From Eledone cirrhosa (lineage: Eukaryota), in assembly GCA_964016885.1 (NCBI GenBank), contig OZ024745.1:558001-622000 (forward strand): DNA of 64,000 bases, given 5' to 3'. The translations under genes were made by a program, and so were the position numbers. This document shows positions 1 to 40,649 of the stretch, piece by piece; the stretch's first letter is position 1; every line of letters starts with the position of its first letter. The notes beneath the pieces are model-generated. The model made no database searches, was not told the DNA's origin, and saw only the letters and a list, made by a program, of their open reading frames with translations.

Positions 1-2287
1 TGACTGTCAGTAAAGGACCTGGTACTATTGTGGTCTGACTGTCAGTAAAGGACCTGGTACTGCTGTGCTCTGACTGTCAATAAAGGACCTGGTACTGTTG
101 TGGTCTGACTGCCAGTAAAGGACCTGGTACTGTTGTGGTCTGACTGTCAGTAAAGGACCTGGTACTATTGTGGTCTGACTGTCAATAAAGGACCTGGTAC
201 TGTTGTGGTCTGACTGTCAATAAAGGACCTGGTACTGTTGTGGTCTGACTGTCAATAAAGGACCTGGTACTGTTGTGGTCTGACTGTCAGTAAAGGACCT
301 GGTACTATTGTGGTCTGACTGTCAATAAAGGACGTAGTACTGTTGTGGTCTGACTGTCATTAAAGGACCTGGTACTGCTGTGGTCTGACTGTCAATAAAG
401 GACCTGGTACTATTGTGGTCTGACTGTCAATAAAGGACCTGGTACTGTTGTGGTCTAACTGTCAGTAAAGGACCTGGTACTGCTGTGGTCTGACTGTCAA
501 TAAAGGACCTGGTACTATTGTGGTCTGACTGTCAATAAAGGACCTGGTACTGCTGTGGTCTGACTGTCAGTAAAGGACCTGGTACTATTGTGGTCTGACT
601 GTCAATAAAGGACCTGGTACTGTTGTGGTCTGACTGTCAGTAAAGGACCTGGTACTGCTGTGGTCTGACTGTCAATAAAGGACCTGGTACTATTGTGGTC
701 TGACTGTCAATAAAGGACCTGGTACTGCTGTGGTCTGACTGTCAGTAAAGGACCTGGTACTGCTGTGGTCTGACTGTCAGTAAAGGACCTGGTACTATTG
801 TGGTCTGACTGTCAATAAAGGACCTGGTACTGTTGTGGTCTGACTGTCAGTAAAGGACCTGGTACTGCTGTGGTCTGACTGTCAGTAAAGGACCTGGTAC
901 TATTGTGGTCTGACTGTCAATAAAGGACCTGGTACTGCTGTGGTCTGACTGTCAATAAAGGACCTGGTACTGTTGTGGTCTGACTGTCAGTAAAGGACCT
1001 GGTACTATTGTGGTCTGACTGTCAATAAAGGACCTGGTACTGCTGTGGTCTGACTGTCAATAAAAGACCTGGTTCTATTGTGGTCTGACTGTCAGTAAAG
1101 GACCTGGTGCTGTTGTGTCTGACTGTCAGTAAAGGACCTGGTACTGTTGTGTCTGACTGCCAGTAAAGGACCTGGTACTGTTGTGTCTGACTGTCAGTAA
1201 AGGACCTGGTACTGTTGTGTCTGACTGCCAGTAAAGGACCTGGTACTGTTGTGTCTGACTGTCAGTAAAGGACCTGGTATTGTTGTGTCTGACTGCCAGT
1301 AAAGGACCTGGTACTGTTGTGGTCTGACTGTCAATAAAGGACCTGGTACTGTTGTGTCTGACTGTCAGTAAAGGACCTGGTACTGTTTATGGTCTGTCAG
1401 TAAAGGACCTGGTACTATTGTGGTCTGACTGCCTGTAAAGGACCTGGTACTGCTGTGGTCTGACTGCCAGTAAAGGACCTGGTACTGTTGTCTGACTGCC
1501 AGTAAAGGCCCTGGTACTGTTGTCTGACTGCCAGTAAAGGACCTGGTACTGTTGTGGTTGTCAGTAAAGGACCTGGTACTGTTGTGGTCTGACTGTCAGT
1601 AAAGGACCTGGTACTGTTGTGGTCTGACTGTCAGTAAAGGACCTGGTACTGTTGTGGTCTGACTGTCAGTAAAGGACCTGGTACTGTTGTGGTCTGACTG
1701 TCAGTAAAGGACCTGGTACTGTTGTCTGACTGCCAGTAAAGGCCCTGGTACTGTTGTCTGACTGCCAGGAAAGGACCTGGTACTGTTGTGGTCTGACTGT
1801 CAGTAAAGGACCTGGTACTGTTGTGGTCTGACTGCCAGTAAAGGACCTGGTACTGTTGTGGTCTGACTGCCAGTAAAGGACCTGGTACTGTTGTGGTCTG
1901 ACTGCCAGTAAAGGACCTGGTACTGTTGTGGTCTGACTGTCAGTAAAGGACCTGGTACTGTTGTGGTCTGACTGTCAGTAAAGGACCTGGTACTGTTGTG
2001 GTCTGACTGCCAGTAAAGGACCTGGTACTGTTGTGTCTGACTGCCAGTAAAGGACATGGTACTGTTGTGGTCTGACTGCCAGTAAAGGACCTGGTACTGT
2101 TGTGGTCTGACTGCCAGTAAAGGACCTGGTACTGTTGTGGTCTGACTGCCAGTAAAGGACCTGGTACTGTTGTGGTCTGACTGCCAGTAAAGGACCTGGT
2201 ACTGTTGTGGTCTGACTGCCAGTAAAGGACCTGGTACTGTTGTGGTCTGACTGCTAGTAAAGGACATGGTACTGTTGTGGTCTGTCA
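1..2287. repeat. 35-bp minisatellite (TGACTGTCAGTAAAGGACCTGGTACTGTTGTGGTC)n, runs off the window start
   Basis: Tandem units read directly; SNP and 2-4 bp deletion variants; ORF 1800..2288 is its translation. Confidence 0.97.
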
Positions 2288-2644
2288 ACCAACATCTGAT
2301 GTACCCATAGTAGTAACCGGTGTTATGTGTCTGATCTCTTTGCTATGACCGATTAGACAGACCTAATAAAAGGAGACAAACACTTCTCCTTTATAGCCAA
2401 ACTACAATGTTTTCTGCTTCCTTAAACTATCAAGCTGTATACCAACTACACCCAGCCGTACTTCATTCATCTTGCTCTTCACCCATCCAATTTCTGTTCC
2501 TAGAACTCCCTACATTATTTTCTATGGACATGAACCAGCAGAGGTTTAAGCTGAACATAAATTCACTTTTTTCCTCACCAGAGATGACAAAAATATAATT
2601 ATAGACAAAGCTGTTGCAACTGTTGCTAATGATGATAGTATTGC

Positions 2645-2815
2645 CCCCCCCCCCCCACACACACACAACTCATACATACATACACTCATACACACACACT
2701 GTCATACACACACACACACACACACACACACTCTCTTATACACTTATACACACACTCTCACTCTCTCTTATACACACACACACACACACCCACTCTCTTA
2801 TATACACACACACAT
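2645..2815. repeat. (CA)n/(CT)n compound microsatellite
   Basis: Direct reading. Confidence 0.9.
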
Positions 2816-3019
2816 CATCATTGGTGCATACATTACATCTGTACAGGCATGTTATAAACAGTGGTAGGATTAAGGGTGTGAAGATAGTGACAACATGTTT
2901 ATAGAGTGACTAATTATTAAGTCTAAAACGTTAATAAAAACACTCCTTCTAATGTTTCATCCAAAATTAAAACAAAATAAAATTAATAAGAGATGGATAA
3001 AAAATAATGGCCATAAAAT

Positions 3020-3160
3020 GATTTCTAATTGAGGCACAAGACCAGCAATTGTTCTGTTAGTGGTTGGGAGTGATTATATCAACCCCTGTTTTGGTACAGG
3101 GGTTGATATAATCAACAAAGTTGACTTTGGTGTGAATTGAACTCAGAACATAAAGAGGTT
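3020..3160 (-). mobile_element. Degenerate SINE fragment
   Basis: Shares GGCACAAG(A/G)CCAGCAATT, GATTAnATCnACCCC and TTGAACTCAGAAC blocks with copies at 5840-6110 and 41415-41675. Confidence 0.55.
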
Positions 3161-3649
3161 AGGGGCTGTGATTCAGTACTGACTTGGTCTGTGATGACAT
3201 ATTCAACCCTTACTAACAGGGGAAATGGATGCTGAATAAAATAAAGATGAACAGATGTGTAAGCAAGTCAAATAGAATGTCTCAATTCTTGGATTGTATA
3301 CTTAATGTCATAAGTTTTAACACCATTGTCTGACCCTTTGGTGCTGTTAACAAGCATTCAGACTAGGTTTTTTAATCTGAGAATATCAAGATTTTGTTCC
3401 CATTCTCCAACATCTTACAAAAAGGTCTTAGGGACCACCATTTCTCCTAAGTTGATAAAATGAAATTCTTTACCATAATTAATTTCAGTGCCTCAATGTT
3501 CTTATTTCAATTCTCACTAGGGTCAACATTGCTTTTTATCTGTCTAATACAGAATTGATTTATATATTTCTAGCATATTAAGTTTGACTAAATAAGTAAG
3601 AATAATATTTTGATGTCAATACATTGAGTTATAATACATACCTTGTAAA

Positions 3650-3733
3650 CATCTATGTATGTATGTGTGTATGTATGCGTGCATGTGTGTGTGTATTATA
3701 ACTCAATGTATTGACATCAAAATATTCTTCTTC

Positions 3734-3764
<31 letters not shown>

Positions 3765-3834
3765 CATACATACGTATACATACGTATGTATGTATGTAAG
3801 TGTGTATGTATGTATGTATGTATGTATGCGTGCA

Positions 3835-3871
<37 letters not shown>

Positions 3872-3885
3872 ATGTACGTGTGTTG
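3650..3885. repeat. (TACA)n/(TATG)n/(TG)n microsatellites with an orientation switch at ~3775
   Basis: Direct reading. Confidence 0.85.
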
Positions 3886-4680
3886 GGTCGTCGGCGACTA
3901 AACCCCACCAAGTTTACTTGGTGAAGAGGGTGATTTTGGACCCCCTGCAGGACAAAAAACAAAACCTGACAAAGGGCGGAAGAACTCATAAGAGTCAACA
4001 ACCATCCGAAAGTGTATAAATATGTATATACACATGTACCGCGCGGTTAAACTACTGGGAGTGAAGGACCCCTATCCCTTGTCAGGGCGTTCTTCTAGGA
4101 GAAGGCAACTCAGGAAACTGGGATAACTCCGATATAAAACCTGCGGCTCAATAGTTACCGGTGATGTTGATCTTTTCTTCTTTTCGGGTTATAGCTACTG
4201 TCTCTCAGAGAGTGGGATTGGCTCAGTGCACAGTCTTTCCTCACTTTAAAAAATATCTTCACGCACAGGCATTGCACGATAGAATTAATTAATAATTATT
4301 AATAATGGCATATCGTGCAATGGCCATACTCGATAACGAGGGGGCAGCCATCATGTGTGTATGTATGTATGTATGTGTGTGTGTATATATGTATGTATGT
4401 ATATATGTATGTATGTAACCTGTCAAAGGGCAAAGGAGCTCTTAAGAGTCAATGGCCATCCAAAATCACCAGGAGAGATGACCCCTTAGCCTTTGTCAAG
4501 GCAGAATTCTAGGAGAAGGAAAACTCTGATATAACACCTGCAACCCTGATGGTATCCAATGATGTTGACCTGTTCTTCTTTTTGGTAAATATCATCTTGG
4601 TTAAGAGAGTGGGACTGGCTTTGTGCAGTGCCTTTGCTCACTATAAAAGCTTCACGGCACAGGCATTGCTTTATATCTGG
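3885..4680 (+). mobile_element. Two diverged copies of an interspersed repeat (possibly RTE-LINE 5' UTR derived)
   Basis: 4070-4275 resembles 4480-4670 (TTCTAGGAGAAGG.AACTC..ATAT, GATGTTGA, GAGAGTGGGA.TGGCT, GCACAGGCATTGC); family assignment is from memory only. Confidence 0.4.
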
Positions 4681-30054: not shown

Positions 30055-30174
30055 ACGAGTGTTTGACTCTAATGCACTCAAGTGTTTTTATCTTATATAT
30101 ATATATATAAATACACACACACATATATATATATATATAATATAAGATCAAAAGATGGTTAAAGGAGTTCAATA

Positions 30175-30245
30175 TATTTTATTATGCGCATTTCAAAAAC
30201 AAACATCATTAAACAATAATATTTGTGTTTTCATCAGATAAAATA
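30175..30245 (-). ncRNA. Type I hammerhead ribozyme (copy 1)
   Basis: Reverse complement of 36524-36594. Confidence 0.88.
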
Positions 30246-31472
30246 GGAGAACATGATATGAAGGCTAAAAAAACACTTGTTGATAGTGCAGTTTTAAATC
30301 AACATATGAAAAGTGGTTTTAGATTGATGTGTGATATTGGGAAAAATATTTTATTTAGAGAGGGGGGGAGAGAAAAGGATGAAAAGGGAAGGAGATGAGA
30401 GGGAGAGATGGGTGATAGAGAGAAAGAGATAGTTTTTATAACAGAGAGGAGATATATATTATATAGAGGGGTTGAAAACCGTTGGAAGATACTGTATAAA
30501 TTAAAAATTTTGAAAATTAACGAAGGGAGGATATGTGCGAGGAAAAAATATATTATATTTAGGGAGGGGTGGGGGTGGAAAGGATGAAAAAAAGGGGAGG
30601 AGATGAGAGTGAAGGTGGAAAGGGAGAGATGGGTGATAGAGAGAAAGAGATAGTTTTTATAACTGAGAAAAAGATATAATGTTTTAATATAGAGAGGTTG
30701 GGAACCGTTGGAAGATAATGTATAAATTAAAGGAATTTGAAAATTAACGAAGGGAAATTATGTATGGAGATAGAGAGAAAAAATAACGAAGGGAGATTAT
30801 GTATGGAGATAGAGAGAAAAAAATAATAATTGTGGGTGAATATTCAAAAGGAGAAATGTAGGAATCTTAAAATTAGCAAAGAGAAAATGTTTATGTATAG
30901 GATTTGAGAAAAATTTATATTGAATTCATATGTATTAATAATGAGTTTGTTGATGGGGAGAAAAAAAAAAAAAAAAAATAATAATAATAATAAATTAAGG
31001 ATGAAATTGAGATTAAAAAGATTTATGATAGAGAGAAAAAATAATAATGATTGCGGATGAATACTCAAAATGTCAAAAACAAATGTTATTGTTTTACGAA
31101 GAGATATAATGAGGGTGATGAGTAAACGGGTATTATAGAGTGTATAATGCCCTTTAAAGTAAGGTAGATGGGTATATTTTAAAGAATATATGAGTATATA
31201 TTAAAAAAATATATATAATAATAAATTAAGGATGAAATTGAGATTAAAAAGATTTATGATAGAGGGAAAAAAATAATAATGATTGCGGATGAATATTCAA
31301 AATGTCAAAAACAAATGTTATTGTTTTACGAGAAGATAGGATGAGGTAAATGAATAAACGAGTACTATAGAGTGTATAATGCCCTTTAAAGTAAGGTAGA
31401 TGGGTATATTTTAAAGAGGTGTATGTATATGTGCCTTTGAGAAAAGATTCTAAATTGATAAAGAATTGAATA

Positions 31473-33875
31473 TTAACTGTATACTTTGTGAAAAGTTCTA
31501 TGGAATTTATGAAGGCAGATGGAAAACAAATCCGAGCGTCTATTTATTATGGATTCTAGGTTAGAGATAATGGTAAATTTTTCATTTAGGCAGAGATTAC
31601 AGATTTTAGATAGAGAACTGTTCAAGTACGAGGATGCAGAAGAAATCTTTTTCCAAAAGATGTTATATTTAATGTTTTTGTCTTTTAAGGACCATATGAG
31701 TTCTGAGAGAGCAGTGTTAGTTCTTTTAAGTTTGTATTTGAAAGATGAATGATGATTATAGAGACGAGCTTTAAAAGAGGTGGAAGTGGAGCCAAAATAG
31801 GTGAAGGAGTTGGTGCTAGTTATAATTTTACATTCATAAATTAAGTTTTTATCGAGGCAATGGTTGTTGAGAGGACATTTATTTTTAATGCGGCAGTTGC
31901 AATTAGAGAGATTATTAATGAGTGATCTAGTGTTATCTATAGAAGGAATTGGATTGGAGAAGTTGTTTGCGATAGGAATAATAGGAATAATAGTTTCTTG
32001 ATTTAGAGTTGGATTATGAACATTTAGCGAAGTTGTGTTTGACGTTGTATTTGGGTTTACAGAAGTTAGCCTAGGGTTTACAATGACGTCAGGAGTACTA
32101 TTATTGTTATTATGAGATTCAATATTGGAAGGAAGAGATTTAGTATTTAATATTTTGTTGTTGTGTTTAGAAATGATGTTGGAAATATTGGAGGATGTAG
32201 AATACGAAAATTTAATGGTGTGTTTGTTAAATATTTTACTATAGATATGTGAGGGAGGGAAGCATTTATTTAAGGCACTAAAAAATAATTTAGGAATATT
32301 GTTATTAATAGAGATGGAGAAAGGAGCATTATACCAGATTATGTTTTTGTATCTAGGTCTTTTATTAAAATTATTGGAATGGTTATGATTAAATATTCTA
32401 CTGTAAGTTTTCCTAGAATTTGTTTCTTTATTATATTTGATTTTATCTGGATAGCCAGCTTTAGAAAGTGCGTTATTATAGTAATTGGCGTTAGCATCAA
32501 AGATGTTTTTATTAGAAGATATGTTAGATATTCTATTTCCAATATTATTAACTATAGCATTCTTGATATTGGTAGGATGGTTAGATTTAAAGTTAACATA
32601 ATTAAGATTCTCATTGTTTTTATGGTAAGGGTAATATAGGCCAGTGTCAAGATTAAGAGATACATCCAAGAAATTAGCTAGTTTGGTACTATTATCAAAT
32701 TCAATTTTTAGGTTATGTTGGTTAAAGAGATTACGTATATTGTTCTTAATAATATTAAGTTTAACTATATTGCAATTTAGGATAGTAAAGAGTCCATCGT
32801 CACGATAAATTCCACCGCGAAGTTGAGGAATTTTCCGACTCAAAGAGTTCAAAATGAAGATACCAATTAAATCAGTCAATTGGGATGAATCGGATGCTCC
32901 CATTGTGATGTCGAAGTTGTTAGAGGTATCGGCTCTGGTCCAATATTCGTTGTTGAACTCTAGGATGGTTTTACGTGCGGTGAGGATGATGTGAAGTTCA
33001 TCTGTGGTGATGTCAGAATATTTAAGTGCGAAAGATAGAGCATTATTGAGAAGTGAAGGCGAAATGGAGGAATAGTAGCTGGCAATATCGAATTGAATAA
33101 ATTTTAGTTTGTTTTTATTATCCAATTTGTTGAACCAGCCAATCACTTCAGAAGTACCAAACCATAAATTTAGGTTTAAAGAAGAGCAATTAGAACTAAC
33201 CTGTGGGATAATCCTATCCAAGATGGCTTTACTAACAACCCCCAGATCAGATTTAGAGGGGGCGATTAATCTAACAGGTAGTTCAGTGCGAAAATTGTTT
33301 TTGTGATCCTTGAGATTTATCCTCGGAGTTCTTGGGAGGAATGGTTCGGTCTTTTTTTCAATGCCAAGTTTTGACATAATCTCATAGGCTTCAAGGTTTA
33401 TGCATTCTAAATTTTCATGGTTGGTTTTACGATACTTTTTCCTAAGTTCCTTTAGGATAAGGTTGTTATAATTATCCTTGGAAATACCATATAGGTTATT
33501 GGTTTTGTCAGAGTGGACTAAAACATTTTTTGAGGAATTTAGGTTAGAGATTGTGTTCTTGAGATTTACAAGGTGCTCTTGTCCTTTGTAAGGGTATCTC
33601 TTGAATTTAAGATTTTTTATAATTTTAGTTAATTCTTCCTCGAATTGTGCTAGATTTTTGTTGGAAGGAGGATTTCGTCTGGAATTAAAAAGATGATCGA
33701 GGAAGTTGTGTTCTTTGGTATGAAAGTTCCCTTTTAGGCGCTGGTCATAGAAATAGGCTGTCCATCTAAGTCTTCTTACGAAGGAGTCAGTTTTTTCAAT
33801 AAGAAGTTTGGTGAATTCAGATTTACCAGGTATAGGAATGACTTTAGTAGAATTGGTTATGTTGTAATAATCCAT
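31473..33875 (-). CDS. Penelope-like RT-GIY-YIG polyprotein, intact (~800 aa from ATG 33875; ORF track extends to a TTG at 33935)
   Basis: FIQFDIASYYSSI, MGASDSS, IYRDDGL, FLDVSL; CNCR..CPL..C; LIYEC..YFGST..FKAR..HH; CNLCLNEK; differs from the + copy by one residue (V vs D). Confidence 0.92.
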   Translation of the reverse strand: MDYYNITNSTKVIPIPGKSEFTKLLIEKTDSFVRRLRWTAYFYDQRLKGNFHTKEHNFLDHLFNSRRNPPSNKNLAQFEEELTKIIKNLKFKRYPYKGQEHLVNLKNTISNLNSSKNVLVHSDKTNNLYGISKDNYNNLILKELRKKYRKTNHENLECINLEAYEIMSKLGIEKKTEPFLPRTPRINLKDHKNNFRTELPVRLIAPSKSDLGVVSKAILDRIIPQVSSNCSSLNLNLWFGTSEVIGWFNKLDNKNKLKFIQFDIASYYSSISPSLLNNALSFALKYSDITTDELHIILTARKTILEFNNEYWTRADTSNNFDITMGASDSSQLTDLIGIFILNSLSRKIPQLRGGIYRDDGLFTILNCNIVKLNIIKNNIRNLFNQHNLKIEFDNSTKLANFLDVSLNLDTGLYYPYHKNNENLNYVNFKSNHPTNIKNAIVNNIGNRISNISSNKNIFDANANYYNNALSKAGYPDKIKYNKETNSRKTYSRIFNHNHSNNFNKRPRYKNIIWYNAPFSISINNNIPKLFFSALNKCFPPSHIYSKIFNKHTIKFSYSTSSNISNIISKHNNKILNTKSLPSNIESHNNNNSTPDVIVNPRLTSVNPNTTSNTTSLNVHNPTLNQETIIPIIPIANNFSNPIPSIDNTRSLINNLSNCNCRIKNKCPLNNHCLDKNLIYECKIITSTNSFTYFGSTSTSFKARLYNHHSSFKYKLKRTNTALSELIWSLKDKNIKYNIFWKKISSASSYLNSSLSKICNLCLNEKFTIISNLESIINRRSDLFSICLHKFHRTFHKVYS

Positions 33876-33952
33876 GTTGTAGAAGAAGAGGTGAAGGACC
33901 ATCAAAAGGTATCCAATATGAGAGTAAGCGCTCAACCGTTAAGGAGCAAGTA

Positions 33953-35304
33953 AACTTCGCGGTGGAATTTATCGTGACGATGGACTCTTTACTATCCTAA
34001 ATTGCAATATAGTTAAACTTAATATTATTAAGAACAATATACGTAATCTCTTTAACCAACATAACCTAAAAATTGAATTTGATAATAGTACCAAACTAGC
34101 TAATTTCTTGGATGTATCTCTTAATCTTGACACTGGCCTATATTACCCTTACCATAAAAACAATGAGAATCTTAATTATGTTAACTTTAAATCTAACCAT
34201 CCTACCAATATCAAGAATGCTATAGTTAATAATATTGGAAATAGAATATCTAACATATCTTCTAATAAAAACATCTTTGATGCTAACGCCAATTACTATA
34301 ATAACGCACTTTCTAAAGCTGGCTATCCAGATAAAATCAAATATAATAAAGAAACAAATTCTAGGAAAACTTACAGTAGAATATTTAATCATAACCATTC
34401 CAATAATTTTAATAAAAGACCTAGATACAAAAACATAATCTGGTATAATGCTCCTTTCTCCATCTCTATTAATAACAATATTCCTAAATTATTTTTTAGT
34501 GCCTTAAATAAATGCTTCCCTCCCTCACATATCTATAGTAAAATATTTAACAAACACACCATTAAATTTTCGTATTCTACATCCTCCAATATTTCCAACA
34601 TCATTTCTAAACACAACAACAAAATATTAAATACTAAATCTCTTCCTTCCAATATTGAATCTCATAATAACAATAATAGTACTCCTGACGTCATTGTAAA
34701 CCCTAGGCTAACTTCTGTAAACCCAAATACAACGTCAAACACAACTTCGCTAAATGTTCATAATCCAACTCTAAATCAAGAAACTATTATTCCTATTATT
34801 CCTATCGCAAACAACTTCTCCAATCCAATTCCTTCTATAGATAACACTAGATCACTCATTAATAATCTCTCTAATTGCAACTGCCGCATTAAAAATAAAT
34901 GTCCTCTCAACAACCATTGCCTCGATAAAAACTTAATTTATGAATGTAAAATTATAACTAGCACCAACTCCTTCACCTATTTTGGCTCCACTTCCACCTC
35001 TTTTAAAGCTCGTCTCTATAATCATCATTCATCTTTCAAATACAAACTTAAAAGAACTAACACTGCTCTCTCAGAACTCATATGGTCCTTAAAAGACAAA
35101 AACATTAAATATAACATCTTTTGGAAAAAGATTTCTTCTGCATCCTCGTACTTGAACAGTTCTCTATCTAAAATCTGTAATCTCTGCCTAAATGAAAAAT
35201 TTACCATTATCTCTAACCTAGAATCCATAATAAATAGACGCTCGGATTTGTTTTCCATCTGCCTTCATAAATTCCATAGAACTTTTCACAAAGTATACAG
35301 TTAA
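33953..35304 (+). pseudogene. 5'-truncated copy of the same ORF, starting just before the YRDD motif
   Basis: Matches 37850-39201; begins at the inversion junction. Confidence 0.9.
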
Positions 35305-36523
35305 TATTCAATTCTTTATCAATTTAGAATCTTTTCTCAAAGGCACATATACATACACCTCTTTAAAATATACCCATCTACCTTACTTTAAAGGGCATTA
35401 TACACTCTATAGTACTCGTTTATTCATTTACCTCATCCTATCTTCTCGTAAAACAATAACATTTGTTTTTGACATTTTGAATATTCATCCGCAATCATTA
35501 TTATTTTTTTCCCTCTATCATAAATCTTTTTAATCTCAATTTCATCCTTAATTTATTATTATATATATTTTTTTAATATATACTCATATATTCTTTAAAA
35601 TATACCCATCTACCTTACTTTAAAGGGCATTATACACTCTATAATACCCGTTTACTCATCACCCTCATTATATCTCTTCGTAAAACAATAACATTTGTTT
35701 TTGACATTTTGAGTATTCATCCGCAATCATTATTATTTTTTCTCTCTATCATAAATCTTTTTAATCTCAATTTCATCCTTAATTTATTATTATTATTATT
35801 TTTTTTTTCTCCCCATCAACAAACTCATTATTAATACATATGAATTCAATATAAATTTTTCTCAAATCCTATACATAAACATTTTCTCTTTGCTAATTTT
35901 AAGATTCCTACATTTCTCCTTTTGAATATTCACCCACAATTATTATTTTTTTCTCTCTATCTCCATACATAATCTCCCTTCGTTATTTTTTCTCTCTATC
36001 TCCATACATAATTTCCCTTCGTTAATTTTCAAATTCCTTTAATTTATACATTATCTTCCAACGGTTCCCAACCTCTCTATATTAAAACATTATATCTTTT
36101 TCTCAGTTATAAAAACTATCTCTTTCTCTCTATCACCCATCTCTCCCTTTCCACCTTCACTCTCATCTCCTCCCCTTTTTTTCATCCTTTCCACCCCCAC
36201 CCCTCCCTAAATATAATATATTTTTTCCTCGCACATATCCTCCCTTCGTTAATTTTCAAAATTTTTAATTTATACAGTATCTTCCAACGGTTTTCAACCC
36301 CTCTATATAATATATATCTCCTCTCTGTTATAAAAACTATCTCTTTCTCTCTATCACCCATCTCTCCCTCTCATCTCCTTCCCTTTTCATCCTTTTCTCT
36401 CCCCCCCTCTCTAAATAAAATATTTTTCCCAATATCACACATCAATCTAAAACCACTTTTCATATGTTGATTTAAAACTGCACTATCAACAAGTGTTTTT
36501 TTAGCCTTCATATCATGTTCTCC

Positions 36524-36594
36524 TATTTTATCTGATGAAAACACAAATATTATTGTTTAATGATGTTTGTTTTTGAAATGCGCATAATAAAATA
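36524..36594 (+). ncRNA. Type I hammerhead ribozyme (copy 2)
   Basis: Stem I TATTTTAT/ATAAAATA; CTGATGA 36532-36538; long stem II AAACACAAATATTATT-GTTT-AATGATGTTTGTTTTT; GAAA 36575-36578; palindromic stem III TGCGCA; AUA cleavage triplet ending at 36586. Confidence 0.9.
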
Positions 36595-36798
36595 TATTGA
36601 ACTCCTTTAACCATCTTTTGATCTTATATTATGCATACTCCAGTCCCACAAACTGTAGAGTGCTTCTTATCCGATATCTGCATTGCTTTATTGTACTACA
36701 ATAAAACTCACCTCCTACATTTACTTGCTCCTTAACGGTTGAGCGCTTACTCTCATATTGGATACCTTTTGATGGTCCTTCACCTCTTCTTCTACAAC

Positions 36799-39201
36799 AT
36801 GGATTATTACAACATAACCAATTCTACTAAAGACATTCCTATACCTGGTAAATCTGAATTCACCAAACTTCTTATTGAAAAAACTGACTCCTTCGTAAGA
36901 AGACTTAGATGGACAGCCTATTTCTATGACCAGCGCCTAAAAGGGAACTTTCATACCAAAGAACACAACTTCCTCGATCATCTTTTTAATTCCAGACGAA
37001 ATCCTCCTTCCAACAAAAATCTAGCACAATTCGAGGAAGAATTAACTAAAATTATAAAAAATCTTAAATTCAAGAGATACCCTTACAAAGGACAAGAGCA
37101 CCTTGTAAATCTCAAGAACACAATCTCTAACCTAAATTCCTCAAAAAATGTTTTAGTCCACTCTGACAAAACCAATAACCTATATGGTATTTCCAAGGAT
37201 AATTATAACAACCTTATCCTAAAGGAACTTAGGAAAAAGTATCGTAAAACCAACCATGAAAATTTAGAATGCATAAACCTTGAAGCCTATGAGATTATGT
37301 CAAAACTTGGCATTGAAAAAAAGACCGAACCATTCCTCCCAAGAACTCCGAGGATAAATCTCAAGGATCACAAAAACAATTTTCGCACTGAACTACCTGT
37401 TAGATTAATCGCCCCCTCTAAATCTGATCTGGGGGTTGTTAGTAAAGCCATCTTGGATAGGATTATCCCACAGGTTAGTTCTAATTGCTCTTCTTTAAAC
37501 CTAAATTTATGGTTTGGTACTTCTGAAGTGATTGGCTGGTTCAACAAATTGGATAATAAAAACAAACTAAAATTTATTCAATTCGATATTGCCAGCTACT
37601 ATTCCTCCATTTCGCCTTCACTTCTCAATAATGCTCTATCTTTCGCACTTAAATATTCTGACATCACCACAGATGAACTTCACATCATCCTCACCGCACG
37701 TAAAACCATCCTAGAGTTCAACAACGAATATTGGACCAGAGCCGATACCTCTAACAACTTCGACATCACAATGGGAGCATCCGATTCATCCCAATTGACT
37801 GATTTAATTGGTATCTTCATTTTGAACTCTTTGAGTCGGAAAATTCCTCAACTTCGCGGTGGAATTTATCGTGACGATGGACTCTTTACTATCCTAAATT
37901 GCAATATAGTTAAACTTAATATTATTAAGAACAATATACGTAATCTCTTTAACCAACATAACCTAAAAATTGAATTTGATAATAGTACCAAACTAGCTAA
38001 TTTCTTGGATGTATCTCTTAATCTTGACACTGGCCTATATTACCCTTACCATAAAAACAATGAGAATCTTAATTATGTTAACTTTAAATCTAACCATCCT
38101 ACCAATATCAAGAATGCTATAGTTAATAATATTGGAAATAGAATATCTAACATATCTTCTAATAAAAACATCTTTGATGCTAACGCCAATTACTATAATA
38201 ACGCACTTTCTAAAGCTGGCTATCCAGATAAAATCAAATATAATAAAGAAACAAATTCTAGGAAAACTTACAGTAGAATATTTAATCATAACCATTCCAA
38301 TAATTTTAATAAAAGACCTAGATACAAAAACATAATCTGGTATAATGCTCCTTTCTCCATCTCTATTAATAACAATATTCCTAAATTATTTTTTAGTGCC
38401 TTAAATAAATGCTTCCCTCCCTCACATATCTATAGTAAAATATTTAACAAACACACCATTAAATTTTCGTATTCTACATCCTCCAATATTTCCAACATCA
38501 TTTCTAAACACAACAACAAAATATTAAATACTAAATCTCTTCCTTCCAATATTGAATCTCATAATAACAATAATAGTACTCCTGACGTCATTGTAAACCC
38601 TAGGCTAACTTCTGTAAACCCAAATACAACGTCAAACACAACTTCGCTAAATGTTCATAATCCAACTCTAAATCAAGAAACTATTATTCCTATTATTCCT
38701 ATCGCAAACAACTTCTCCAATCCAATTCCTTCTATAGATAACACTAGATCACTCATTAATAATCTCTCTAATTGCAACTGCCGCATTAAAAATAAATGTC
38801 CTCTCAACAACCATTGCCTCGATAAAAACTTAATTTATGAATGTAAAATTATAACTAGCACCAACTCCTTCACCTATTTTGGCTCCACTTCCACCTCTTT
38901 TAAAGCTCGTCTCTATAATCATCATTCATCTTTCAAATACAAACTTAAAAGAACTAACACTGCTCTCTCAGAACTCATATGGTCCTTAAAAGACAAAAAC
39001 ATTAAATATAACATCTTTTGGAAAAAGATTTCTTCTGCATCCTCGTACTTGAACAGTTCTCTATCTAAAATCTGTAATCTCTGCCTAAATGAAAAATTTA
39101 CCATTATCTCTAACCTAGAATCCATAATAAATAGACGCTCGGATTTGTTTTCCATCTGCCTTCATAAATTCCATAGAACTTTTCACAAAGTATACAGTTA
39201 A
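36799..39201 (+). CDS. Penelope-like RT-GIY-YIG polyprotein, intact (800 aa from ATG 36799)
   Basis: Same motifs as the minus copy; N-terminal STKDIPIP..LIEK..F.RRLRW.AYF resembles Naiad-type PLE N-termini as I recall them. Confidence 0.93.
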   Translation: MDYYNITNSTKDIPIPGKSEFTKLLIEKTDSFVRRLRWTAYFYDQRLKGNFHTKEHNFLDHLFNSRRNPPSNKNLAQFEEELTKIIKNLKFKRYPYKGQEHLVNLKNTISNLNSSKNVLVHSDKTNNLYGISKDNYNNLILKELRKKYRKTNHENLECINLEAYEIMSKLGIEKKTEPFLPRTPRINLKDHKNNFRTELPVRLIAPSKSDLGVVSKAILDRIIPQVSSNCSSLNLNLWFGTSEVIGWFNKLDNKNKLKFIQFDIASYYSSISPSLLNNALSFALKYSDITTDELHIILTARKTILEFNNEYWTRADTSNNFDITMGASDSSQLTDLIGIFILNSLSRKIPQLRGGIYRDDGLFTILNCNIVKLNIIKNNIRNLFNQHNLKIEFDNSTKLANFLDVSLNLDTGLYYPYHKNNENLNYVNFKSNHPTNIKNAIVNNIGNRISNISSNKNIFDANANYYNNALSKAGYPDKIKYNKETNSRKTYSRIFNHNHSNNFNKRPRYKNIIWYNAPFSISINNNIPKLFFSALNKCFPPSHIYSKIFNKHTIKFSYSTSSNISNIISKHNNKILNTKSLPSNIESHNNNNSTPDVIVNPRLTSVNPNTTSNTTSLNVHNPTLNQETIIPIIPIANNFSNPIPSIDNTRSLINNLSNCNCRIKNKCPLNNHCLDKNLIYECKIITSTNSFTYFGSTSTSFKARLYNHHSSFKYKLKRTNTALSELIWSLKDKNIKYNIFWKKISSASSYLNSSLSKICNLCLNEKFTIISNLESIINRRSDLFSICLHKFHRTFHKVYS

Positions 39202-39256
39202 TATTCAATTCTTTATCAATTTAGAATCTTTTCTCAAAGGCACATATACATACACC

Positions 39257-40320
39257 TCTTTAAAATATACCCATCTACCTTACTTTAAAGGGCATTATAC
39301 ACTCTATAGTACTCGTTTATTCATTTACCTCATCCTATCTTCTCGTAAAACAATAACATTTGTTTTTGACATTTTGAATATTCATCCGCAATCATTATTA
39401 TTTTTTTCCCTCTATCATAAATCTTTTTAATCTCAATTTCATCCTTAATTTATTATTATATATATTTTTTTAATATATACTCATATATTCTTTAAAATAT
39501 ACCCATCTACCTTACTTTAAAGGGCATTATACACTCTATAATACCCGTTTACTCATCACCCTCATTATATCTCTTCGTAAAACAATAACATTTGTTTTTG
39601 ACATTTTGAGTATTCATCCGCAATCATTATTATTTTTTCTCTCTATCATAAATCTTTTTAATCTCAATTTCATCCTTAATTTATTATTATTATTATTTTT
39701 TTTTTTTTCTCCCCATCAACAAACTCATTATTAATACATATGAATTCAATATAAATTTTTCTCAAATCCTATACATAAACATTTTCTCTTTGCTAATTTT
39801 AAGATTCCTACATTTCTCCTTTTGAATATTCACCCACAATTATTATTTTTTTCTCTCTATCTCCATACATAATCTCCCTTCGTTATTTTTTCTCTCTATC
39901 TCCATACATAATTTCCCTTCGTTAATTTTCAAATTCCTTTAATTTATACATTATCTTCCAACGGTTCCCAACCTCTCTATATTAAAACATTATATCTTTT
40001 TCTCAGTTATAAAAACTATCTCTTTCTCTCTATCACCCATCTCTCCCTTTCCACCTTCACTCTCATCTCCTCCCCTTTTTTTCATCCTTTCCACCCCCAC
40101 CCCTCCCTAAATATAATATATTTTTTCCTCGCACATATCCTCCCTTCGTTAATTTTCAAAATTTTTAATTTATACAGTATCTTCCAACGGTTTTCAACCC
40201 CTCTATATAATATATATCTCCTCTCTGTTATAAAAACTATCTCTTTCTCTCTATCACCCATCTCTCCCTCTCATCTCCTTCCCTTTTCATCCTTTTCTCT
40301 CCCCCCCTCTCTAAATAAAA
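39257..40320 (+). repeat. Internal duplications in the PLE 3' non-coding region: a ~200-bp pair (39257, 39489), a ~37-bp pair (~39845-39920) and a ~200-bp pair (~39914, 40141)
   Basis: Direct comparison; the same pattern is present in all three element copies. Confidence 0.85.
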
Positions 40321-40423
40321 TATTTTTCCCAATATCACACATCAATCTAAAACCACTTTTCATATGTTGATTTAAAACTGCACTATCAACAAGTGTTTTT
40401 TTAGCCTTCATATCATGTTCTCC

Positions 40424-40494
40424 TATTTTATCTGATGAAAACACAAATATTATTGTTTAATGATGTTTGTTTTTGAAATGCGCATAATAAAATA
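40424..40494 (+). ncRNA. Type I hammerhead ribozyme (copy 3)
   Basis: Identical to 36524-36594, offset 3900 bp. Confidence 0.9.
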
Positions 40495-40618
40495 TATTGA
40501 ACTCCTTTAACCATCTTTTGATCTTATATTATGCATACTCCAGTCCCACAAACTGTAGAGTGCTTCTTATCCGATATCTGCATTGCTTTATTGTACTACA
40601 ATAAAACTCACCTCCTAC

Positions 40619-40649
<31 letters not shown>

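Follow-up and report, generated by a model that had tools for sequence, protein, structure and literature searches.

An inverted copy that ends where the forward array stops in a Hydra-type Penelope-like element of Eledone cirrhosa, and a minor recurrent stop at the same base in its family

In L1 twin priming, the second nicked strand primes internally on the RNA and the two cDNAs are joined head to head via microhomology; where the inner priming happens depends on chance annealing, and the resulting segments represent separate, non-overlapping portions of a single unit-length RNA. Cervera and de la Pena are said to have reported in 2020 that hammerhead retrozymes and circular RNAs are mobilised by Penelope-like elements. 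How Penelope-like elements themselves integrate has been the subject of two proposals in the papers considered here, namely self-priming on an antisense template (2013, PMC3846280) and an 'EN-mediated resolution' (2021, PMC8557442), and in 2024 of an in vitro outline whose later steps are unvalidated (PMC11167929). In that in vitro work both strands of the target are cut and extended by the protein of Poseidon PAc, from Anolis carolinensis, which begins reverse transcription at two neighbouring internal sites on a multi-copy RNA; the tail is the segment from one of these sites to the other (Frangieh et al. 2024, PMC11167929); the end of the second cDNA and the relation of the arms go unreported there. 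For the Hydra clade, the description in the available sections of PMC8557442 gives a DKG to DKT change, a CxCX5C linker, replacement of CCHH by CxxC and CxH near conserved E and N residues, and insertion into (TA)n. Several traits of the locus studied here are already known: the partial tandem (pLTR), the inverted copy, the one-sided tail and the microsatellite target from the same sections and those available of PMC3846280, and two-site priming from in vitro work (PMC11167929).

The window analysed here, a 64-kb stretch of Eledone cirrhosa DNA (OZ024745.1), contains a young Hydra-type Penelope-like retrotransposon that inserted once into a (TA)n tract; three copies of the element stand there, flanked by (TA)n on both sides (Table 1). 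Element positions follow the full forward copy, window 36720-40619, which serves as reference unit 1-3900. The inverted arm aligns to this unit over 3818 nt with 1 mismatch (at unit 114) and one 5-nt gap; the arms are not separated by any target DNA, and identity among the copies is 99.8-100%. Outwards, the inverted copy ends at unit 3813 (...TTGATCTTATATTAT/(AT)n), 87 nt before 3900, and the forward partial copy is truncated immediately upstream of the YRDD motif of the putative RT. On the other side, the forward array terminates as ...CTCACCTCCTACA at window 40619, base 40620 being a T common to the (TA)n flank, while within the tandem the identical sequence at 36719 continues as TTTACTTGCTCC from 36720. 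The last letters of the inverted copy are TTTACTTGC, precisely what comes after CCTACA in the tandem junction. As the inverted copy is unit 1-3813, position 33954 therefore pairs with 36720, and as the forward partial copy starts at 33953, the arms overlap by 2 nt (AA, 33953-33954); because of this overlap and of the T shared with the flank, the coincidence is exact within 0-2 nt. A first-pass annotation of the window had stated that the inverted copy begins at the element position where the forward array stops and that a 2-nt AA microhomology joins it to the truncated copy. Both statements are correct: 33954 is base 1, which comes directly after 3900 in the tandem, and the AA is seen at the junction. 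The 1/1131 junction itself recurs at C1:264,199,147 (C1:264194000-264208000; L047, L048) with unrelated flanks, in a copy of another subfamily that has TTA for TTT at unit 1-3 and a 3' UTR only 87% alike.

Table 1. Features of the insertion, in window coordinates (unit 1-3900 is the full forward copy).
Feature	Position	Strand	Unit position or basis
(AT)n target microsatellite	30122..30136	.	adjoins outer end of inverted arm; sequence
Inverted arm ('S2 arm')	30137..33954	-	unit 1-3813; outer end 3813, inner end base 1
Predicted hammerhead copy in inverted arm	30167..30252	-	CTGATGA at 30237-30231; coordinates mapped from unit
Intact 809-aa ORF of inverted arm (putative RT and C-terminal GIY-YIG-type endonuclease)	31473..33902	-	ORF translation
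Head-to-head junction, AA shared by both arms	33953..33954	.	unit 1-2 of inverted arm; unit 1129-1130 context of forward copy
Forward 5'-truncated copy	33953..36719	+	unit 1131-3900; 0 mismatches, one 3-nt gap
Predicted hammerhead copy in truncated forward copy	36517..36602	+	3,900-nt offset; stretch identical to full unit
Tandem junction 3900/1 (...CCTACA/TTTACTTGC)	36719..36720	+	sequence; recurs genome-wide
Full-length forward unit, 3,900 bp	36720..40619	+	reference unit; outer end is the 3900 site
Intact 809-aa ORF of full unit	36772..39201	+	ORF translation; homologues by database search
Predicted type-I hammerhead ribozyme	40417..40502	+	predicted fold; CUGAUGA 40432-40438, GAAA 40475-40478
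87-nt 'tail', unit 3814-3900	40533..40619	+	between two outer-end sites; hairpin 40533-40563 at its start
(TA)n target microsatellite	40620..40645	.	adjoins forward array; sequence

A database search with the 809-aa ORF returned 70 relatives at 32-40% identity. The ORF itself matched no Pfam family above threshold (GIY-YIG included) and nothing in a PDB profile search; the Pfam GIY-YIG family is matched by 3/20 aligned homologues (best E 1.7e-4), and the language-model (Atlas) neighbours of the ORF carry RVT_1 (77% of one cluster), HTH_animal, DUF8422 and GIY-YIG. By eye, the translation contains YRDD and DKT motifs and a C-terminal ...LIYECK...YFGST...R...NH... stretch, read as a GIY-YIG endonuclease fused in one ORF to a putative RT, together with the Hydra-clade motifs HSDKTNN, CNCRIKNKC, CNLC...NEK and CLH, and RWT where the clade has RWK. 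Placed by these motifs, as compared with the clade description in PMC8557442, the element is a Hydra-type EN+ Penelope-like element. The structural hallmarks of EN+ elements, as given in the parts of PMC8557442 and PMC3846280 available to us, are also present: a partial tandem (pLTR), an adjacent inverted copy and a one-sided tail. (TA)n is found on both flanks of the window insertion, at 29/30 sampled outer ends (the remaining one runs into Ns), at 4 further ends and beside other insertions such as L053.

The likeness to the Hydra clade, as far as it is described in the available text of PMC8557442, covers DKT, CxCX5C, CxxC and CxH, the (TA)n target, the pLTR, the inverted adjacent copy and the one-sided tail; the clade also has a hammerhead motif in the 3' region, where one is predicted here. 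Measured against the same text, the unit is longer here (3.9 kb, the clade being generally < 3 kb), as is the tail (87 nt vs 30-40 nt), and the inverted copy, 5'-truncated in the clade, is complete to base 1; a long 3' UTR with ~231-bp internal repeats, RWT rather than RWK and a hammerhead without an Rfam call further set this element apart. With PAc it shares an AT-rich target, two (here presumed) start sites and a tail between them, but it belongs to a different clade, the start sites of PAc are closer together, and PAc shows no strand bias in their use, whereas here each arm has one site in 29/30 insertions (PMC11167929).

The 3' UTR (window 38250-40330, unit ~2538-3608) holds two pairs of internal direct repeats, one of ~215-231 bp at 93% identity and one of ~195-218 bp at 80%, and is the most divergent part between subfamilies (87% vs 98% elsewhere). 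An AATAAA at unit 3881-3886 (in the window region 40600-40619), 14 nt before the ...CA unit end, resembles a polyadenylation signal; among the 3900 ends and tandem junctions seen, none is followed by an A-run.

A type-I hammerhead ribozyme is predicted near the end of the unit. All core nucleotides are present (CUGAUGA, GAAA, A15.1-U16.1 and H17), and the predicted fold has three helices (z -2.3); helix III is short, with a GCGC loop, helix II is A/U-rich and exceptionally long, and positions 10.1-11.1 form an A-U pair. Rfam gave no ribozyme or other family at threshold in the window, and no hammerhead model even at E up to 10. The predicted cut would fall after 40486 (unit 3767), 133 nt upstream of 3900, and we rejected the idea that the hammerhead cut forms the unit boundary. 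At three loci (L083, L084 and L085, at C15:32941218, C15:39516246 and C28:46114711) the first base of an arm is unit 3768, directly behind the predicted cut, which is what self-cleaved RNA used as template would give; these three clean cases do not demonstrate an enrichment of 5' ends at 3768 over the high break background of the 3' region.

The family counts hundreds of copies in its own 3.0-Gb genome, and the tandem junction 3900/1 was present in 40/40 scored full-length matches at 99-100% identity and in 48/49 exact 27-mers. Breaks at base 1 were enumerated from the 21-mer at unit 4-24, which has 265 genomic occurrences (14 + 251), with three search patterns that jointly cover 63/64 possible non-junction contexts before it. 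Fifteen of the 265 copies are without the preceding ...ACA, and BLAST of these loci resolved them into 9 true breaks exactly before base 1 and 6 point variants of the tandem junction. The nine comprise the window insertion, six full-size elements (L032, L034, L035, L036, L039, L040) and two mini derivatives (L038, L046). By the first pattern alone, 5 true breaks were found at base 1 as against 0, 0, 2 and 0 at units 350, 480, 630 and 920 (raw counts, not per copy of the control 24-mer). The unselected picture is different: across 30 sampled tandem-junction loci, upstream ends (18 resolved) and inner ends of inverted arms (12) are scattered, the latter at 12 different positions, and none lies at base 1. 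Base 1 is therefore a minor but real stop, at which ~3% of the arms that reach it halt; some 250/265 unit starts run on upstream into 3900, and as most arms read through base 1, any block there is weak or the partner is usually elsewhere.

The outer ends of the arrays follow a rule of their own. Among 30 arrays that read through base 1, the outer end is 3813 (...TTGATCTTATATTAT/(TA)n) in 19 and 3900 in 11, and where both outer ends of back-to-back insertions are readable, one of each kind is found in 29/30. The 87 nt between the two sites correspond to the one-sided 'tail' of the literature; a clear hairpin directly follows 3813 and a weak one follows 3900. The sole exception to the pairing (L022/L023, C1:362772163 / 362773536) is a perfect palindrome broken at 3213/3213, with 3813 outside on both sides, and looks like a fold-back copy. 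In the enumerated set, the arms that stop at base 1 are of one type only: all 8 resolved cases have a 3813 outer end (L036, being interrupted, was left out), and 7/8 have a 3900-ended partner arm, of 36, ~95, ~120, 272, ~1,150, 2,770 or 6,670 nt, while L052 is without partner. With a 3813 share of 63% in read-through arms, 8/8 would arise by chance with a probability of 0.63^8 = ~0.025, a figure that comes from only 8 cases. In contrast to base 1, both arm types stop at ~unit 3640-3657 (L084, L087, L208-L211, L098, L106, L116), where inner ends give near-palindromic junctions; this is likely a true RNA 5' end in the pLTR. A second cluster of inner ends was noted at 3579, 3581 and 3589 (L003, L009, L005), and the two clusters, at 3640-3657 and 3579-3589, are possibly transcript starts inside the pLTR.

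The stop one base past a start site, together with its limit to one arm type, is a modest new mechanistic clue: neither was found in the available parts of PMC8557442, PMC3846280 and PMC11167929, nor by a literature search on Penelope-like elements and twin priming, none of whose listed papers concerns the insertion of such elements. It bears on the integration of endonuclease-bearing Penelope-like elements. The opinion of the first-pass annotation that twin priming does not obviously predict the layout was too strong, two-strand, two-site priming having been shown in vitro (PMC11167929); such priming predicts the pattern, provided that the template ends or is blocked at base 1. The L1 form of twin priming differs, both start sites being fixed here and the arms together (3,813 + 6,670 nt) exceeding one unit.

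The reading to which we lean, tentatively and from the genomic copies, is that reverse transcription of the two arms was primed by both cut DNA strands at two fixed positions, 3900 and 3813, within a single multi-unit or circular RNA. The 3900-primed strand would move upstream across one complete unit and reach 1131 in the preceding one, and the other strand would be primed on the same RNA (or on the same circle), at 3813 of the unit that follows downstream. This second strand would copy back to base 1 and stop where it met the duplex that the first cDNA had made, since position 3900, next on the template, would already be paired with the start of that cDNA, and the two free cDNA ends would then be joined through the AA microhomology. 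On the shared-template reading the inverted arm would match exactly the stretch of RNA from one start site to the other, so that its inner end abuts the end of the forward array. Of the two options offered by the first-pass annotation, one breakpoint on a circular or concatemeric template is thus the favoured one, with 8/8 resolved arms 3813-primed and 7 of them facing a 3900-primed partner; of the other, a transcript boundary, the boundary is real and recurrent, and its reading as a transcript end stays an alternative. A mirror case exists in L086, (TA)n/rc(3713-3813)/3814-3900/(TA)n, in which the 3900-primed arm stops one base after the 3813 start of its partner. The hot spot at 3814 that the mirror situation predicts was not found, with 1 true case among 2 pattern matches, and the break background nearby is high (candidate breaks in 13/30 sampled at 3830 and in 6/30 at 3848). 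Also counted against the shared template are the recurrence of the 1/1131 junction in another subfamily and the breaks at unit 1131 (+/- 4) in L059, L066 and L070. A counter-case lies in a mini-array at C18:29.48 Mb, whose 3900-ended arm, at least 24 units long, halts at base 1 while facing a partner that ends at 3813; a linear shared RNA does not predict this, and a circle or an RNA 5' end does.

As the main rival, it is possible, though on the whole unlikely, that base 1 instead marks a transcript boundary: a minority of template RNAs would begin there, by a start site or by processing at the pLTR/body border, cDNAs reaching it would run off, and the two arms may derive from separate RNAs. 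Such a boundary accounts for all 10 base-1 stops, including the 3900-primed mini-array arm and the partnerless L052. The layout of L053, (TA)n/rc(3865-3900)/1-3813/(TA)n, has the look of classic twin priming on a single RNA of unit length, and L085 is laid out in the same way, except that its long arm reaches to the predicted hammerhead cut, 3768, where an RNA 5' end is predicted on independent grounds; run-off hot spots moreover exist elsewhere, in the two inner-end clusters at ~3640-3657 and 3579-3589. Against it, the ~250/265 unit starts that continue into 3900 mean that most templates do not begin at base 1, and 3900-primed arms make up 0 of the 8 resolved base-1 stops of the enumerated set, though 11/30 of the read-through arms. 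Nor does a transcript boundary say why an RNA should begin precisely one base past a start site, except if a jump from that 5' end created the tandem junction, and none of the nine base-1 junctions carries an extra cap-derived base. The mini-array counter-case, the absent enrichment at 3814 and the layouts of L053 and L085 keep this rival alive.

A variant of the shared template that we regard as distinctly unlikely is a unit-length circular RNA made by the element's own hammerhead, on whose single 3900 and single 3813 sites the two strands would start. A circle, if real, would account for the pairing of unlike outer ends within an insertion, for the exactness of tandem junctions and for a stop one base after a start site; the stop might then fall after the start site of the partner or, after whole turns, after the arm's own.

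What the rule would mean differs between these accounts. In its two parts (one start site per arm; the 3813-primed arm stopping one base after 3900), it would be the footprint of one RNA bridging both break ends. Should the stop mark an RNA 5' end, a transcript would begin at the pLTR/body border.

The remaining explanations fare worse. That the inverted arm was merely truncated at base 1, by chance or at a generic pause site, is very improbable. Inner ends are usually scattered, as the 12 positions of the 12 unselected arms show, and the control at 630 also had two breaks, but nine independent-looking stops at one base stand against a control mean of 0.5 by the pattern that gave 5 at base 1. 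For a single insertion the coincidence has a chance of ~3 in 3,900, and with 9/265 unit starts broken exactly there across the genome, the first-pass judgement that a random coincidence is unlikely is upheld. Still less can be said for self-priming, in which a single cDNA folds back and copies itself, as proposed for the inverted pLTRs of rotifer Penelope elements. The L022/L023 palindrome (3213/3213, with 3813 as outer end on both sides) fits it, and the available portion of Arkhipova 2013 (PMC3846280) favours it for palindromic junctions, but the window arms are unequal, with 3813 vs 3900 outside and 1 vs 1131 inside, and unlike outer ends occur in 29/30 pairs; as the two window arms differ at both ends, neither is a fold-back copy of the other. 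Two separate insertions in the same microsatellite, or an assembly artefact, are just as remote: (TA)n is the target of the family, which makes a repeat insertion plausible, and the short Logan contigs (four runs), none of which bridges 33954, are neutral either way, but the lack of target sequence between the arms, their 2-nt overlap, the 99.8-100% likeness of the copies and the same layout at other loci of a chromosome-scale assembly speak against both.

The mini derivatives are non-autonomous and keep unit 1-69/103/123 plus 3710/3782-3900, predicted hammerhead included; their outer ends are again 3813 and 3900. Within (TA)n they build up long arrays, both tandem and inverted, and they were found at C18:29483106-29490470 (L041-L045), C19:31140478-31140988 (L038) and C26:15231102 (L046); a 297-bp mini unit consists of 1-103 plus 3711-3900, and one array has at least 24 such units. 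A DNA search with the mini-element junction returned mostly one long array and added four back-to-back pairs, with no new base-1 stops among its matches. In keeping the hammerhead and both unit ends, and in lying in (TA)n arrays, the minis, which are known here from DNA alone, resemble retrozymes; the window element differs from these in being autonomous and 3.9 kb long. L053 and L065 (C3:214659727; C12:23851875) share a 36-nt piece of the tail in inverted orientation, rc(3865-3900), whose inner end is identical in the two insertions. Head-to-head arrays with periods of 204 and 185 bp, each with the 3900/1 junction, lie at C2:216011836-216012393 and C13:36269660-36270784.
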